64,000 bases of DNA from Escherichia phage FL20, in the sequence record PP400781; one strand, 5' to 3'. Position 1 is the stretch's first letter. The number at the start of each line of letters is the position of its first letter. A model generated the notes under the pieces. The model was not told the DNA's origin. It did no database searches and saw only the letters and a program-made list of their open reading frames with translations. Shown piece after piece: positions 37,537 to 45,121 of this stretch. Made by a program: the position numbers and the translations under genes.

Positions 37537-37626
37537 AGTCTCTTCCTCTCTTCGTTTTCGATGCTCTCACTATATCACAGAAAAATAAAAAGGGAAACCC
37601 CTTTCAGAGTCTCCCTTATAAAGCCA

Positions 37627-38706: not shown

Positions 38707-40176
38707 CTATTCCCCATTGCCATTATACTTTCTTTGCTTAGTTATCCACACTCTAACCATCTCTACAGATTCGCCGTCAGACGGATCAAGAGTTTTTCCT
38801 TTTTTCTTCATGCGGTACTTAAATCCGTTAAATCTTGCATTCTCTTGCTCGTTAAAGTCGAACATCTTTTTAAATGATTTTCGCCCTTTACGCTCACCAC
38901 ATTCTAGCGGAATCATTCGGTCTGTTATTACATTGGCATTAGGTAGAAACGTTTTTAGATAATCCACCAACGCCCAATCAGGAACATATAGATTAACATT
39001 CTCCTTGCTCTCGTTGTCTCTCAGGTTACAACGCAAACATAATTGAAATGCTGGTTCCAGATAATCAGACACATGACGCGCTTTCAAAAACTCGTTTGTC
39101 GGGAGATCACAACTATTAGCAAGACCTTTTAAAATATCAATCTCCCATCGTTGAGGGTTAAAGCTGAACATCACAGCAACATTTTTATGATGAATGTAAG
39201 AGTTAAGACCATAAGATCCGTAAGGTATCCGCTCACCAATACCATTTGTACACGCTTCTCGGTCCCGATTCACGGTATAAATGAAGTCATCGCCACATTC
39301 ATTTTTAACCATATCAACAAGACGTTCAAAGGTATTGTTTGTTTCTGACTGGTGACGCGACCATCGTTCAGAGTCCGTCATAAGGATGATATTAACTCTA
39401 TCTGTATTTTTATACTCTTTGAAATATAGTCTGGATTCTAGCGCACTCGGAACAAAATCGCAATTTGCATAGTATCGTAGATACTTCCCACTATATGTAT
39501 CAAAGAGATTTGCACATGCTATCGTAACCTTTTTAAAGTCTCCCCACGTACCGTGTTTGTTATCGTTCAAGAAAACAATTTTCGACCCATTCTTCCGGTG
39601 TCCTTCGTTATGTTTTACCATAACGTTGATTTTCTTCTCTAATAACGCCTCATAAAGCCCTCTAAGAGAAGAATCGATCATATCAGTACCATCCTTCGCA
39701 CTTTCTATCTTTTCTTTGATAGCGGCCTTCTCAGAGTCTTTTAGAACTAAGTTCTGTAGGCATTCCGATTCGTCGGCGATTGGTTCGCAATGCTTCGTGA
39801 TAAGTTCAAGATTAGACTTAAACGGATACTCATTAAATTCAACCAGTTGAGGAACTTCATCAATGTAAAGAGCATAATCACCAAACATTTTTGAACGTTC
39901 CATATTAGATAACGCTGTATGTGTAATGAATATCACATCAGCACCGTCTTTAACTGATTGCATTATCGACGCTTGCACTGTCTTAAGGCTTCTTAGTCTT
40001 GTGCTATCAATCAAGACAGCACGACCGCCCATTCTTTTAAACTTATTGTAAGATTGTTCACTTAAAACACGAGATGGCGAAGCAATAACCGCTTTTTCTT
40101 TTGTCTCTAGGACGTGGGAAAGTATAGCATCAGTTTTCCCCGCCGCTGGCAATGCGATTAATGTTTCAATCTTCAT
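38707..40176 (-). CDS. SF2-helicase-like P-loop NTPase of unknown function (not in T4 core set)
   Basis: 489 aa; Walker A ALPAAGKT at residues 9-16, motif Ia-like IASPSRVLSEQ, Ib-like VIFITHTAL, Walker B/DExx-like LYIDEVPQL; C-terminal 350 aa without recognised motifs; start overlaps stop of upstream ORF (TAATG). Confidence 0.55.
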   Translation of the reverse strand: MKIETLIALPAAGKTDAILSHVLETKEKAVIASPSRVLSEQSYNKFKRMGGRAVLIDSTRLRSLKTVQASIMQSVKDGADVIFITHTALSNMERSKMFGDYALYIDEVPQLVEFNEYPFKSNLELITKHCEPIADESECLQNLVLKDSEKAAIKEKIESAKDGTDMIDSSLRGLYEALLEKKINVMVKHNEGHRKNGSKIVFLNDNKHGTWGDFKKVTIACANLFDTYSGKYLRYYANCDFVPSALESRLYFKEYKNTDRVNIILMTDSERWSRHQSETNNTFERLVDMVKNECGDDFIYTVNRDREACTNGIGERIPYGSYGLNSYIHHKNVAVMFSFNPQRWEIDILKGLANSCDLPTNEFLKARHVSDYLEPAFQLCLRCNLRDNESKENVNLYVPDWALVDYLKTFLPNANVITDRMIPLECGERKGRKSFKKMFDFNEQENARFNGFKYRMKKKGKTLDPSDGESVEMVRVWITKQRKYNGNGE

Positions 40177-40463
40177 TAGAAACCCTTACGTCGTGCTTTC
40201 TGGCATTTCTTGATCATTTTATCAGAAATTTCGCGCTTAGGTGCAATCTCTTTCACACCGAAAGCACTAATGCCAAATTCAGAGAGAATATATTCAACCA
40301 ACAATTCACGCACACGCGCTTTACCGATATTCACGCCGTTATTTTTCAGATATGTCTGGCCTTCGACTTGCATCAGATCTAAATCCGCGTCGGTAATATT
40401 GATTTCTTCCATGCGCCCAAATCGAGAATAAACCATGTGTGCGATTGCATTGTGTACTAACAT
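40176..40463 (-). CDS. Hypothetical protein coupled to the P-loop gene
   Basis: About 95 aa from ATG at roughly 40461-40463 with GAGGAA RBS; stop overlaps downstream start. Confidence 0.4.
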   Translation of the reverse strand: MLVHNAIAHMVYSRFGRMEEINITDADLDLMQVEGQTYLKNNGVNIGKARVRELLVEYILSEFGISAFGVKEIAPKREISDKMIKKCQKARRKGF

Positions 40464-40486
40464 AATATATTCCTCACTCAAGAATT

Positions 40487-40643
40487 ACTTAATGATACTT
40501 ACTTTACCAGATCCGTGACAATGAGCGCAACACCCATCACCACGCAATCCTGTTCCGTTACAGTGTTTACACTTCTTCAACGGTAAAGCCATTATAGCAA
40601 ATAAAGCAATAATGAACACCGAAACTAAATTCTCAATAATCAT
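40487..40643 (-). CDS. Micro-protein with TM helix and DnaJ-type double CxxCxGxG zinc finger (52 aa)
   Basis: Not in the ORF track. Translation MIIENLVSVFIIALFAIMALPLKKCKHCNGTGLRGDGCCAHCHGSGKVSIIK read from the minus strand. Confidence 0.4.
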
Positions 40644-40902
40644 AAATCGCCCTCAGTTCTTTATAGCCTCCAATGTGCTCGTTGTCAATGAATATCTGGG
40701 GGTATACAAACCGGAGGCTCTTTGAGTTTAGCCTCCCCGCCAGTTCTTCAATCATATCACGGTCGGGAATAATGTCAACCCCGACCTGCTTGAATACTGG
40801 TTTAAGTGTATACGGAATACCCAGATCATCCAGTAGCTTCATTGCACTAATACAACCATAACAATGATAAGCCTCTTTCGGTATACCGTATATCTCGATC
40901 AT
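40633..40902 (-). CDS. nrdH: Glutaredoxin-like protein (NrdH-like)
   Basis: 89 aa; CYGC redox motif near N-terminus and YPQIFIDNEHIGGYKEL glutaredoxin signature; located next to nrdG as T4 nrdH. Confidence 0.55.
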   Translation of the reverse strand: MIEIYGIPKEAYHCYGCISAMKLLDDLGIPYTLKPVFKQVGVDIIPDRDMIEELAGRLNSKSLRFVYPQIFIDNEHIGGYKELRAIYDY

Positions 40903-41399
40903 TTCTCAGCCTTTAATCTTTCTAGTTCTTCTTCCAGTTCCTTGATCCGTTGGTCACGTTCAAAGTCACGCTGTAACTTAGTGGCGAATACTCGTTTAAA
41001 CTGATTGTAATCATCGATTTTAAACACTTCTTCTTCGCCATAGCGACGCACAGAAACTTCGTAGTTATTGAAGAATTGTTGCATCATTGCTTCGGATGAT
41101 AGCTCTGCTGATACCACTTTAAAATATTGATCTTCTGTAGGCGAAAACCAATTACAAGCATAAAGATAAACCTTTTCATTGTCTGGACACTGGTAAGCCT
41201 TACCATCGATTTCAATCACAGAAACATACTCAGGTATACTAGATGAATCAATAGCTAAGACTTTAAACGCACGGTCCCCGATAAACTCGGAGATCACACG
41301 ATTCGCATCACTGGTTGCAAATGCTTTACGCGCTTGTTCGTTTTTCCACTGATAGGTCATACCAACAACAAACATATTACCAACCTCGCTCTTTACCAA
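40899..41399 (-). CDS. WEVGK-module family protein (1 module plus coiled-coil tail)
   Basis: 166 aa; GMTYQWKNEQARKAF ... FKVLAIDS ... IEIDGKAY module and C-terminal RIKELEEELERLKAEK; paralog of seven neighbouring genes. Confidence 0.5.
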   Translation of the reverse strand: MVKSEVGNMFVVGMTYQWKNEQARKAFATSDANRVISEFIGDRAFKVLAIDSSSIPEYVSVIEIDGKAYQCPDNEKVYLYACNWFSPTEDQYFKVVSAELSSEAMMQQFFNNYEVSVRRYGEEEVFKIDDYNQFKRVFATKLQRDFERDQRIKELEEELERLKAEK

Positions 41400-42201
41400 T
41401 CAAAAATTCAACTTCACGACGTTTAATGTCTTCTTGAAGGTCTTTAATCTTCTGGCGATCTTGCATGATTTCATCCATCTTGTCAAGTGCCGCAATGAAA
41501 TCATCGAAACGTTCAAAGGTTTTACCTTCATTTGCTTCGCCAAATTTAACCATTGTCAGGCCGTAACGACTACTAAACAGACGTTTCAACTGTCCAACGA
41601 TCTTAGAATCAGTGGTTATAACTTCCAATTCTTCTACTTCACGAAAGAATTTTCTATCAGAATCAATAAACCAGCTAGTTCCTTTATGGTCTCTATCTTC
41701 GGTTGCGCTCATTAGAGTATGGTCTTTACCATCAATTTCAATTACATCAATTTGCCCACATGGACGAACATTTTTAACAGTAAAAGGTCTATAATTTATT
41801 GCTCGTGCAATAACATAATTAAGGTTAGATACGTTTTCAGCATAATGGCAGAAGTCGGTCATAGCATTCACATCTTTCCAAGTATAAGTTTTACCAACTT
41901 CCCATTTCTGGGGAACTTCTTCAACTTCACGAAAGAATTTTCTATCAAATGGACTAAAGAAATATGTTGCAGTCCAAATGTCTTTTCCTGTAGCAGTTTT
42001 CGCCGTATGATAAACACCGTCTAGCTCTATTGCATTAATCCAACCGTTACCCTCGATCTCGATGATGGTAAATGGCTTGTCACCAATAGCTGCACTAATA
42101 TCGCTGTTAAGTGGAGAAAGAACACCTTCTCCGTTAGTAATAAACTCAGTTTTAGCGTTTTCATCTTTCCAGGTGTAAGTTTTACCAATTTCCCATTTCA
42201 T
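41377..42201 (-). CDS. WEVGK-module family protein (2 tandem modules plus tail)
   Basis: 274 aa; module 1 starts MKWEIGKTYTWKDENAKTEF, module 2 starts QKWEVGKTYTWKDVNAMTDF; each ends with DRKFFREVEE. Confidence 0.55.
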   Translation of the reverse strand: MKWEIGKTYTWKDENAKTEFITNGEGVLSPLNSDISAAIGDKPFTIIEIEGNGWINAIELDGVYHTAKTATGKDIWTATYFFSPFDRKFFREVEEVPQKWEVGKTYTWKDVNAMTDFCHYAENVSNLNYVIARAINYRPFTVKNVRPCGQIDVIEIDGKDHTLMSATEDRDHKGTSWFIDSDRKFFREVEELEVITTDSKIVGQLKRLFSSRYGLTMVKFGEANEGKTFERFDDFIAALDKMDEIMQDRQKIKDLQEDIKRREVEFLIGKERGW

Positions 42202-42213
42202 AATATATTCCCC

Positions 42214-42714
42214 TTAACCGATTTTATCAAGTTCGTTTAATGCTTTCTCTGCTTCCTGTATAGCTTGCACTCTTTCCGGCATTTTGTCAAGAAAATCTTT
42301 CAACTCTTCAAAACTGGAGATATGACGCAAGGCATTAGCACCGATAGCCGCATGTGATTTGCATTCAAAGCGAATTTTATAATTATCCATCGCCAATTTG
42401 AGAAGGTCTATTAGATCATATTCATGACCAGGCAATAAAACTTCTTTGAAGCACGCTCGGTCGCCATCGGAAAACCATATATTATCACCAACATCGATAG
42501 AACTAATATAATCCCCTTCGTGATTATAGATTGAACGTACATTACCCCAACGGTCTACCGTAGCGACAGTAAATGGTTTATCTAGATATGTAAACACACC
42601 ATCAATATTAGGTTTTTGTTCGTAACGCCAACAATCACGCAAAATGCGCTTTTCGTCCTCACCAACCAACTTATATGTCTTCCCTTCTTCCCATTTCATA
42701 ATATCATCTCTCAT
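42214..42714 (-). CDS. WEVGK-module family protein (1 module plus tail)
   Basis: 166 aa; MKWEEGKTYKL ... DGDRACFKEV; helical tail. Confidence 0.5.
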   Translation of the reverse strand: MRDDIMKWEEGKTYKLVGEDEKRILRDCWRYEQKPNIDGVFTYLDKPFTVATVDRWGNVRSIYNHEGDYISSIDVGDNIWFSDGDRACFKEVLLPGHEYDLIDLLKLAMDNYKIRFECKSHAAIGANALRHISSFEELKDFLDKMPERVQAIQEAEKALNELDKIG

Positions 42715-43240
42715 TTTTGATACGTGATTCTAATTGGATCATACGGTCGCGCGTTTGCTTGTATTCGCGGATAGCACCGATCCGGCTAGGCATACCATCC
42801 AGTACGCTCTTAATACCTTCTATGGTAGTAATTTTGGCAATGCTATTATGTAACCCCATCTTATCGATCAACTGAATGTCGTAGGCTTCCATAAGCAGAC
42901 CCAGACGTTCTAAAGTTAGGTCTTCTTCTTTTTCTTCCGATTCTGGAATCTTAGGTTCAATAGTAACTTCGGTAAAGAAACGACGCTCACCCGACCAAAA
43001 CCACACACCGGAACAGCCAATAGGGGATTCTTTTAACGTCATAGAGTCGAAATTACTACCAATAATAGTAATTTCTCTAACATCACCATCATCGTCAAGG
43101 TCTTCTACCCTAAACGGGCGACCAGCCAACAAGTCAACAATACATCTGTTAATAGACGACGAAAATTTAGTCAGTTCGGCTTTCGACGCTTCGCATTCAA
43201 TCTTGTAAGTTTTACCAACTTCCCATTCCATAATAATCAC
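42704..43240 (-). CDS. WEVGK-module family protein (1 module plus tail)
   Basis: 178 aa; MEWEVGKTYKI ... SGERRFFTEV; helical tail. Confidence 0.5.
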   Translation of the reverse strand: MIIMEWEVGKTYKIECEASKAELTKFSSSINRCIVDLLAGRPFRVEDLDDDGDVREITIIGSNFDSMTLKESPIGCSGVWFWSGERRFFTEVTIEPKIPESEEKEEDLTLERLGLLMEAYDIQLIDKMGLHNSIAKITTIEGIKSVLDGMPSRIGAIREYKQTRDRMIQLESRIKNER

Positions 43241-45053: not shown

Positions 45054-45121
45054 GTTGTCCTCTCGTTGTTTTCGATGTGAGCATTATACATTAGCTAATC
45101 ATGTTGTCAACACCCCAAAAC

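Follow-up and report, generated by a model that had tools for sequence, protein, structure and literature searches.

What can a protein of only 52 residues, built of one membrane helix and a pair of CxxCxGxG motifs, do for a phage that carries it? The question is raised by a minus-strand open reading frame (ORF) of Escherichia phage FL20 (sequence record PP400781), which we analyzed in a stretch of 64,000 nucleotides (nt), referred to here as the window. The ORF, hereafter the micro-protein gene, translates to MIIENLVSVFIIALFAIMALPLKKCKHCNGTGLRGDGCCAHCHGSGKVSIIK (52 residues), with a 4-residue N-terminus, a hydrophobic stretch, and a 28-residue tail that holds two perfect copies of the motif. 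We suggest, with a probability of roughly one half for the statement as a whole, that it is an early accessory gene translationally coupled to a glutaredoxin gene, and that its product is a membrane protein anchored with the N-terminus out and the C-terminus in (N-out/C-in), whose cytoplasmic Zn(Cys)4 ribbon binds a membrane-proximal partner. Zinc binding, topology, expression timing, the partner and the role of the glutaredoxin are the parts of this proposal that we infer.

The gene itself is not a newly discovered element. In this region, the window matches Escherichia phage kvi at 100% identity and RB49 at 99% (genus Krischvirus, Straboviridae; the RB49-like T4-type coliphages), and the ORF has been annotated as hypothetical since the RB49 genome record, where RB49ORF046c is a 'hypothetical protein' (AAQ15321). 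The kvi record lists it as kvi_187, W115_25 and the Makalu phage copies are labelled 'putative membrane protein', and the UniProt entry, Q7Y3T0, reads 'uncharacterized protein'. An earlier sequence-only reading of the window had described a 52-residue micro-protein whose N-terminal membrane helix is followed by two CxxCxGxG motifs, and the ORF, a hydropathy of 2.8 and both motifs are all there. It placed the gene at 40487-40643, right to within 2 nt given that the stop codon ends at 40485, and it did not say that the strand is minus. Its remark that the gene was missing from the ORF track may hold for the track which that reader had, but the public records do annotate it. What is new is the form: a membrane-anchored, single-zinc ribbon of the DnaJ type in phages, as predicted here, is a new form of a known module.

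That the ORF is a real gene under purifying selection is, in our judgment, virtually certain. It is present in 58 of 58 Krischvirus records at no less than 97% nucleotide identity, and in 22 of the 58 the flanking 1.7 kb is only 90-95% identical. In the relative L031 (a sequencing-run assembly; protein P0003), the product is 82% identical and the frame is kept despite an in-frame 9-nt insertion inside the hydrophobic segment. The comparison between the query and L031 yields 10 synonymous and 7 non-synonymous codon changes, a ratio of non-synonymous to synonymous substitution rates (dN/dS) of 0.18, and all but one of the replacements lie outside the zinc-finger half. The motif pair is also rare by composition: a six-frame count across the 64-kb window finds three CxxCxGxG motifs, two of them inside this ORF, compared with 0.24 per window in shuffled sequence and a pair within one ORF in none of 200 shuffles. 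A Shine-Dalgarno sequence precedes the start codon (Table 1), and a CTGAGG ribosome-binding site occupies the equivalent place in L031 and in two further relatives, L062 and L063. Conservation of the frame, the point on which the sequence-only reading proposed that it be judged, extends through the 58 Krischvirus genomes to relatives of approximately 40% identity and to the Ounavirinae.

The wider family was collected by tblastn of 50,697 phage records, by comparison with the PHROG library, and by a HMMER scan of 1.84 billion representative proteins. The micro-protein matches the hidden Markov model of phrog_3931, a family with no assigned function, at E=4.3e-10, with residues 7-48 on profile positions 15-56 of 59. 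This family is centered on proteins of 54-58 residues from Felixounavirus and Kolesnikvirus (Ounavirinae; Felix O1-like phages) that have the architecture of the query, and the Felix-type and M7-type homologues match the profile at E=1.6e-32 and 3.7e-18, respectively. The HMMER scan added relatives of 53-60 residues (P0004, P0005, P0006, P0010 and P0013), all with the transmembrane and two-motif layout. We treat ten phage members as the core family and base residue conservation on an alignment of 13 sequences, in which only the four cysteines and four glycines of the two motifs are invariant (Table 1), and the start-to-start spacing of the motifs is 14 residues in 11 members and 15 in two. Two bacterial look-alikes of 52-69 residues, P0015 and P0024, were left outside the core, as their N-termini are rich in lysine and arginine, giving the opposite predicted topology, and they have no fifth cysteine. 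Weaker tblastn matches in the 152-kb viral contig L008, in S-RIM2 cyanophages, and in the Pseudomonas phages phiPto-bp6g, PotUPM1 and Victoria were set aside because these are larger or soluble proteins that share the motif alone.

One genome from each of 185,579 bacterial and archaeal species yielded no whole-length homologue, and in a Joint Genome Institute (JGI) metagenome scan whole-length homologues were confined to Krischvirus contigs, with no prophage copy. Otherwise, these scans returned genuine DnaJ genes and zinc-finger proteins that are unrelated and either soluble or multi-repeat. As far as the searches reach, the family seems to be restricted to virulent phages of Enterobacteriaceae.

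The first half of the protein is predicted to be a single transmembrane helix. The best 17-residue Kyte-Doolittle window, LVSVFIIALFAIMALPL (residues 6-22), has a mean of 2.8, AlphaFold2 places a helix at residues 2-18, and substitutions within the helix of relatives exchange one hydrophobic residue for another. In the query, the helix is preceded by E4, the sole acidic residue before it, and followed by LKK. The same arrangement recurs across the family, with no lysine or arginine and exactly one acidic residue before the helix in all ten core members, and a lysine or arginine in the short linker just after it in eight of the ten. Under the well-established positive-inside rule, this charge pattern points to an N-out/C-in orientation with the ribbon on the cytoplasmic face, and the micro-protein is thus predicted to be a bitopic inner-membrane protein. 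Such a topology would leave the cysteines in the reducing cytoplasm, which makes zinc binding plausible.

The second half is best described as one putative DnaJ/anti-TRAP-type ribbon with a single Zn(Cys)4 site, and we consider the combined architecture of a transmembrane anchor and a predicted zinc ribbon highly likely. The two knuckles are spaced Cx2Cx10Cx2C, so that what the sequence-only reading called a double zinc finger corresponds to one four-cysteine site, at which zinc would be bound by the four cysteines together. A fifth cysteine lies beside or inside the second CxxC in all ten core phage members, and is missing from the bacterial look-alikes and from aligned DnaJ segments. It may serve as a redox-active thiol, an alternative ligand or an intermolecular link. 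No curated family in Pfam or NCBIfam is matched above threshold. With the single sequence, the sub-threshold Pfam matches are GRXCR1-2_C (E=0.0036), zf-AtTam37 (E=0.0057; a literature search for 'Tam37' found nothing) and DnaJ_CXXCXGXG (E=0.041). The last of these, PF00684, reaches 14.6 bits against a gathering threshold of 32.7 bits and is covered only at profile positions 1-28 of 65, although 11 of the 13 aligned members match it at E<=0.1 (best 4.7e-5). Compared with all Protein Data Bank (PDB) sequences, the family profile matches the cysteine-rich domain of E. coli DnaJ (1exk) at E=2e-12, with repeats 1-2 and 3-4 each matching, followed by human DNAJA3 (7.8e-8), anti-TRAP (3lcz; 2.7e-6) and lambda Q (7.5e-5).

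The AlphaFold2 model, computed with the 13-sequence alignment, consists of the helix and then two beta-hairpins (mean predicted local distance difference test score, pLDDT, 74.6). It includes a short strand after the second knuckle and no C-terminal helix. A Foldseek search with this model returned anti-TRAP structures first (3ld0 and 3lcz), at a root-mean-square deviation of 0.8-1.0 A over 26-28 residues. This ranking fits the topology of the sites: each DnaJ zinc site is built from non-adjacent repeats (as established by structure 1exk), and the module of the micro-protein, with its two successive repeats, therefore corresponds to anti-TRAP rather than to half of a DnaJ domain. No J domain was matched in Pfam or NCBIfam, where DnaJ models touch the zinc motif only and fall far under their cut-offs. 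Given the lack of a J domain and the presence of only half a cysteine-rich domain, the micro-protein is not a DnaJ.

In the Krischvirus lineage, translation of the micro-protein is probably coupled to that of an NrdH-like glutaredoxin, whose gene ends just inside it (Table 1). The same 11-nt overlap, ATGnnnnnnTGA, recurs in L031, where the micro-protein is 82% identical to the query, in L062 (40%) and in L063 (45%). The NrdH-like protein is 43% identical to T4 NrdH, and it matches the NCBIfam glutaredoxin 3 model at E=1e-7 (32.1 bits, under the 90-bit cut-off). As the glutaredoxin of L063 and the gp55.2-like protein of L062 are each approximately 65% identical to their counterparts in the window, and the micro-proteins only 40-45%, the micro-protein appears to evolve fast outside its invariant skeleton. 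The gene lies inside a long same-strand run that has strong sigma70-type promoter matches at 45110 and 43360 and, at 37617, a hairpin resembling a terminator. No late promoter motif of the T4 type was found near the gene. This promoter pattern, itself a pattern match alone, would fit early expression. A further sigma70-like match lies inside the nrdH-like gene (40751..40778, minus; TTGACA and TATGAT 16 nt apart, extended -10 TG present; 11/12). Positioned approximately 100 nt 5' of the micro-protein ATG, it might permit transcription independent of the glutaredoxin.

How might such a protein act? We propose that this early-region accessory gene of RB49-like phages would give rise to a bitopic inner-membrane micro-protein, that its two knuckles together would bind one Zn2+ to form a small ribbon on the cytoplasmic face, and that this tethered zinc knob could bind a membrane-proximal host or phage protein and block, recruit or stabilize it. 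In Krischvirus, where the two genes would be translationally coupled, the NrdH-like glutaredoxin may hold the five cysteines reduced and zinc-competent. The mechanism taken alone, a membrane-tethered protein-binding knob, is a tentative suggestion. The tail residues other than cysteine and glycine are poorly conserved between lineages, and the tail has 6 basic and 1 acidic residues in the query but 4 basic and 6 acidic ones in P0028 and the M7-type member. A variable knob surface and an unconserved net charge argue against a conserved nucleic-acid-binding or enzymatic role, and for a protein-binding module that co-evolves with its target; nucleic-acid binding by the basic tail was rejected as a conserved function for the same lack of a conserved net charge. 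A zinc-binding anti-sigma (ZAS) factor, an idea prompted by the nearby gene 55, was likewise rejected, with no HxxxCxxC in the protein and no gene 55 in the Ounavirinae context. The domain order of the ZAS family is the reverse of that of the micro-protein.

The accessory regions in which the family lies, with counter-defense genes as flanks in Felixounavirus and a gp55.2-like neighbor in Krischvirus, also count for the proposal. Protein binding is what two precedents suggest. The first is anti-TRAP (RtpA of Bacillus; PDB 2bx9, 3lcz and 3ld0; PF15777), the best structural match of the model, which at approximately 53 residues is of nearly the same size and has exactly two CxxCxGxG motifs with the same Cx2Cx10Cx2C spacing. 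Its 53 residues include two CXXCXGXG motifs that bind one zinc needed for assembly and function, and it acts purely through protein binding, by inhibiting TRAP (PMC2896485). Unlike the micro-protein, anti-TRAP has no transmembrane helix. It is a soluble protein that assembles into trimers and dodecamers through a C-terminal helix, and it serves trp operon control in a Bacillus host. To our knowledge, it also has no fifth cysteine. The micro-protein is not a member of the anti-TRAP family, as it matches NCBIfam RtpA (NF058604) at E=0.097 with 12.8 bits against a 65-bit cut-off, and PF15777 is weakly matched by 2 of the 13 family members.

The second precedent is FIP of Arabidopsis (At5g02160), which combines a transmembrane helix with two CXXCXGXG motifs, has its N-terminus in the lumen and its C-terminus in the stroma, and binds FtsH5 (PMC5915565). 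Without its transit peptide, FIP follows the same plan, with no J domain and with a C4 zinc finger placed after a single membrane anchor, and its finger lies on the stromal, cytoplasm-equivalent side, matching the predicted topology of the micro-protein. It differs in being eukaryotic, plastid-targeted, longer, reported only in land plants, and in having a known partner, FtsH5. Exactly two CXXCXGXG motifs also occur in the zinc finger of lambda Q and in an insert of HMO-2011-type DNA polymerases (PMC9038755, PMC5313236). There, however, the two motifs form part of large soluble proteins whose enzymatic or regulatory cores are known, while in the micro-protein they make up the entire soluble part.

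Several points weigh against our proposal. The confidence of the AlphaFold2 model is only moderate, and the Foldseek E-values, 0.3-1, are not significant alone for a 28-residue module. The topology call was made by counting charges, and P0003 does not have the KK after the helix. The likeness to FIP is architectural only and was drawn from the published description (PMC5915565). Two Felixounavirus isolates have frameshifted or truncated copies, P0036 of phage phiWec177 and P0035 of Salmonella phage NJ12, of which one is left without the second motif and the other without the membrane helix, and unless these are sequencing errors, the phages may be able to do without the gene, at least in laboratory culture. 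No neighbor common to the Krischvirus and Ounavirinae contexts was found, and thus no partner is named by gene order. Literature searches returned no functional data on the micro-protein or any family member.

Few parts of phage genomes are understood as poorly as their small membrane proteins. In the handful of cases studied, these proteins turned out to control exclusion, the timing of lysis or host defenses. An invariant zinc-binding skeleton with a drifting remainder, kept in two unrelated subfamilies, is the pattern expected of a compact host-targeting binding module. If the target can be identified, a function would be assigned to a gene in several hundred genomes of coliphages and of Salmonella, Shigella and Erwinia phages, many of them therapy candidates, and the protein might offer a minimal membrane-tethered inhibitor scaffold.

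A more specific form of the protein-binding proposal, which we regard as doubtful, is that the micro-protein is a host-takeover or counter-defense factor whose cytoplasmic-face zinc ribbon neutralizes a specific enterobacterial membrane-associated protein. By analogy with FIP, the target could be FtsH, or it could be an effector of a membrane-acting abortive-infection system. The fifth cysteine of the Krischvirus protein, reactive on this view, might then be serviced by the co-translated glutaredoxin, and the Felix O1-like member would act in a counter-defense island of NAD+-salvage and rIIAB genes.

The overlap with the glutaredoxin gene raises another, rather unlikely, explanation, in which the NrdH-like glutaredoxin has the cysteine-rich tail as its thiol-disulfide substrate or partner, and the tail conveys a redox signal or reducing equivalents at the membrane. 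The overlap survives in relatives whose micro-proteins are 40-45% identical, and the fifth cysteine is found in 10 of 10 core phage members and in none of the bacterial look-alikes. DnaJ-type zinc fingers can have oxidoreductase activity, which we also count in its favor. The top Pfam match, GRXCR1-2_C, points the same way, since GRXCR1 and GRXCR2 join a glutaredoxin-like domain and a DnaJ-like cysteine-rich domain in one protein (PMC6114524). The phage pair could accordingly be cast as a split, membrane-anchored counterpart of GRXCR1/2, with the same two domains in adjacent overlapping genes, or be likened to plant DnaJ-like zinc-finger disulfide isomerases; CYO1 is cited as a DnaJ-like zinc-finger protein (PMC5915565). 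Yet GRXCR1 and GRXCR2 are vertebrate stereocilia proteins with fused domains and no membrane helix, and the match (PF23733) is sub-threshold, at 17.6 bits against 26, covers a single motif in 12 residues (22-33), and is shared by 2 of the 13 family members. Overlap is evidence for co-expression, not proof of interaction. No glutaredoxin is adjacent to the Ounavirinae homologues, with more than 200 genomes carrying a family member without such a neighbor, so that a redox role could be at most a lineage-specific refinement.

The Ounavirinae context leads to a different suggestion. There, the homologue follows genes for ribose-phosphate pyrophosphokinase and nicotinamide phosphoribosyltransferase and an ORF of 111-113 residues, and lies immediately upstream of rIIA-rIIB. 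This placement between NAD+-salvage genes and rIIA/rIIB is found in at least 213 Felixounavirus genomes, and in both Felixounavirus and Kolesnikvirus a lysin gene comes after rIIB. Together with the prediction of a single-pass membrane protein found in virulent enterobacterial phages only, this could indicate a factor in lysis timing, superinfection exclusion or membrane integrity that works with rIIA/rIIB or resembles a holin or antiholin, and that may counter membrane-depolarizing abortive infection. We consider this improbable. The Krischvirus gene is far from the rII and lysis genes and is coupled to the glutaredoxin instead, and we know of no holin, antiholin, Imm or Sp protein that resembles a predicted cytoplasmic ribbon with a 4-residue periplasmic end. 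In the Felixounavirus Bas63, both flanking gene sets were shown to be counter-defense genes: the NAD+ genes act against Sir2-HerA and a retron, and rIIA/B against QatABCD, the latter a point in favor of such a factor, but the same study has no data on the genes between them, the present one included (PMC11482910).

The sequence-only reading had itself offered two guesses, a membrane-tethered zinc ribbon and a chaperone mimic. The former is the prediction that the evidence favors. The latter, in which the tail, by imitating the DnaJ zinc center, would make the membrane a site where DnaK or the clients of DnaJ are trapped or diverted, is very improbable. It can draw on the profile similarity to the DnaJ cysteine-rich domain (E=2e-12; PF00684, 1exk), on the PF00684 matches at E<=0.1 in 11 of 13 members, and on depositors who named some homologues 'chaperone protein', 'dnaJ' or 'heat shock protein', though these labels are based on the motif alone. 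DnaJ (Hsp40) combines four repeats, which build two zinc sites, with a J domain, a G/F region and domains that bind clients, whereas the micro-protein has two of the four repeats, that is, half a cysteine-rich domain, with a membrane helix and none of these other parts. Its 14.6 bits stay under the Pfam cut-off of 32.7, residues other than cysteine and glycine are poorly kept between lineages, and the closest solved analogue, anti-TRAP, is a protein-binding inhibitor and no chaperone. Finally, that the ORF has no function, being a chance frame or a remnant retained merely through overlap with its neighbors' signals, is barely credible: the very short length, the frameshifted copies in two natural isolates and the sub-threshold scores for all curated families would speak for it, but a spurious ORF is excluded by selection and conservation, with a dN/dS of 0.18 and an in-frame indel, a Cys/Gly skeleton invariant from 100% down to approximately 30% identity across two gene contexts and two phage subfamilies that are unrelated, a motif pair that shuffling never yields, and a Shine-Dalgarno sequence.

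Table 1. Positions in the window of the micro-protein gene, its parts and its neighbors
Feature	Position	Strand	Basis or remark
Complete micro-protein ORF (52 codons + TAA)	40485..40643	minus	ATG to TAA; RB49ORF046c / kvi_187 / W115_25
Predicted single transmembrane helix, codons 5-21 (NLVSVFIIALFAIMALP)	40581..40631	minus	Kyte-Doolittle maximum 2.8-3.0 over 15-17 residues
First CxxCxGxG knuckle, codons 25-32, CKHCNGTG	40548..40571	minus	C25, C28, G30, G32 invariant (n=13)
Fifth cysteine, C38, family-specific, precedes second knuckle	40530..40532	minus	family alignment
Second CxxCxGxG knuckle, codons 39-46, CAHCHGSG	40506..40529	minus	C39, C42, G44, G46 invariant (n=13)
Shine-Dalgarno sequence, GAGGG	40650..40654	minus	6 nt 5' of ATG, inside last codons of nrdH-like gene; read from sequence
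Overlap of nrdH-like stop and micro-protein start, 11 nt (ATGATTATTGA)	40633..40643	minus	read from sequence
NrdH-like glutaredoxin gene (89 residues, CYGC active site)	40633..40902	minus	Pfam Glutaredoxin, 23.4 bits against 22.9-bit cut-off
gp55.2-like gene (DUF7570)	40176..40463	minus	starts 21 nt past micro-protein stop
P-loop/DEAD-like ORF, 489 residues	38707..40176	minus	PF00270, E=3e-6; phrog_2467 (function unassigned)

In Krischvirus, the micro-protein gene is found among small accessory ORFs between nrdG and gene 55. The minus-strand order in the window is an array of paralogous ORFs, the NrdH-like glutaredoxin, the micro-protein, the gp55.2-like gene, the P-loop/DEAD-like ORF, and gene 55, encoding the late sigma factor. 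The sequence-only reading had set the micro-protein between the nrdH-like gene, which does adjoin it, and the P-loop unit, which comes only after the gp55.2-like gene. The order of glutaredoxin, micro-protein, DUF7570 and DEAD-like ORF is kept in L031, L062 and L063 as far as the contigs reach, that of L063 terminating in an apparent start of the DUF7570 gene. No orthologue of the micro-protein was found in T4 between nrdH and gene 55, where the products of 55.3-55.6 are unrelated and do not have the motif. The T4 homologue of the gp55.2-like neighbor has been described as a host-directed factor. For the start of the gp55.2-like gene, a mechanical ORF list gives TTG at 40481 and GenBank gives ATG at 40463, and a GAGGAA ribosome-binding site precedes the latter. 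The 489-residue P-loop/DEAD-like ORF occupies the position of T4 55.1 and is kept in the divergent relatives L031 and L062.

On the Ounavirinae side, the ORF upstream of the homologue has no Pfam match and no CxxC motif, and neither phmmer nor BLAST detected similarity of the two families of such ORFs, phrog_4262 and phrog_27920, to any ORF of the window or to each other. In Salmonella phage vB_SenM-pSJ21 (L004, 907..7746), the homologue and an overlapping 111-residue ORF lie between NAD+-reconstitution genes and rIIA/rIIB. Erwinia phage M7 (Kolesnikvirus; L005, 3170..3631) encodes a protein with a ProQ/FinO-family RNA-chaperone domain (PF04352, E=8e-19) two genes upstream of its homologue.

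The paralogous array upstream of the glutaredoxin gene in the window (40899..43240, minus) comprises four consecutive ORFs of 166, 274, 166 and 178 residues, each starting with a 'W-E-x-GKTY' domain. The 274-residue paralogue contains this domain twice, and the paralogues match phrog_5347 and phrog_3710 and, weakly, goF-like mRNA-metabolism modulator families.

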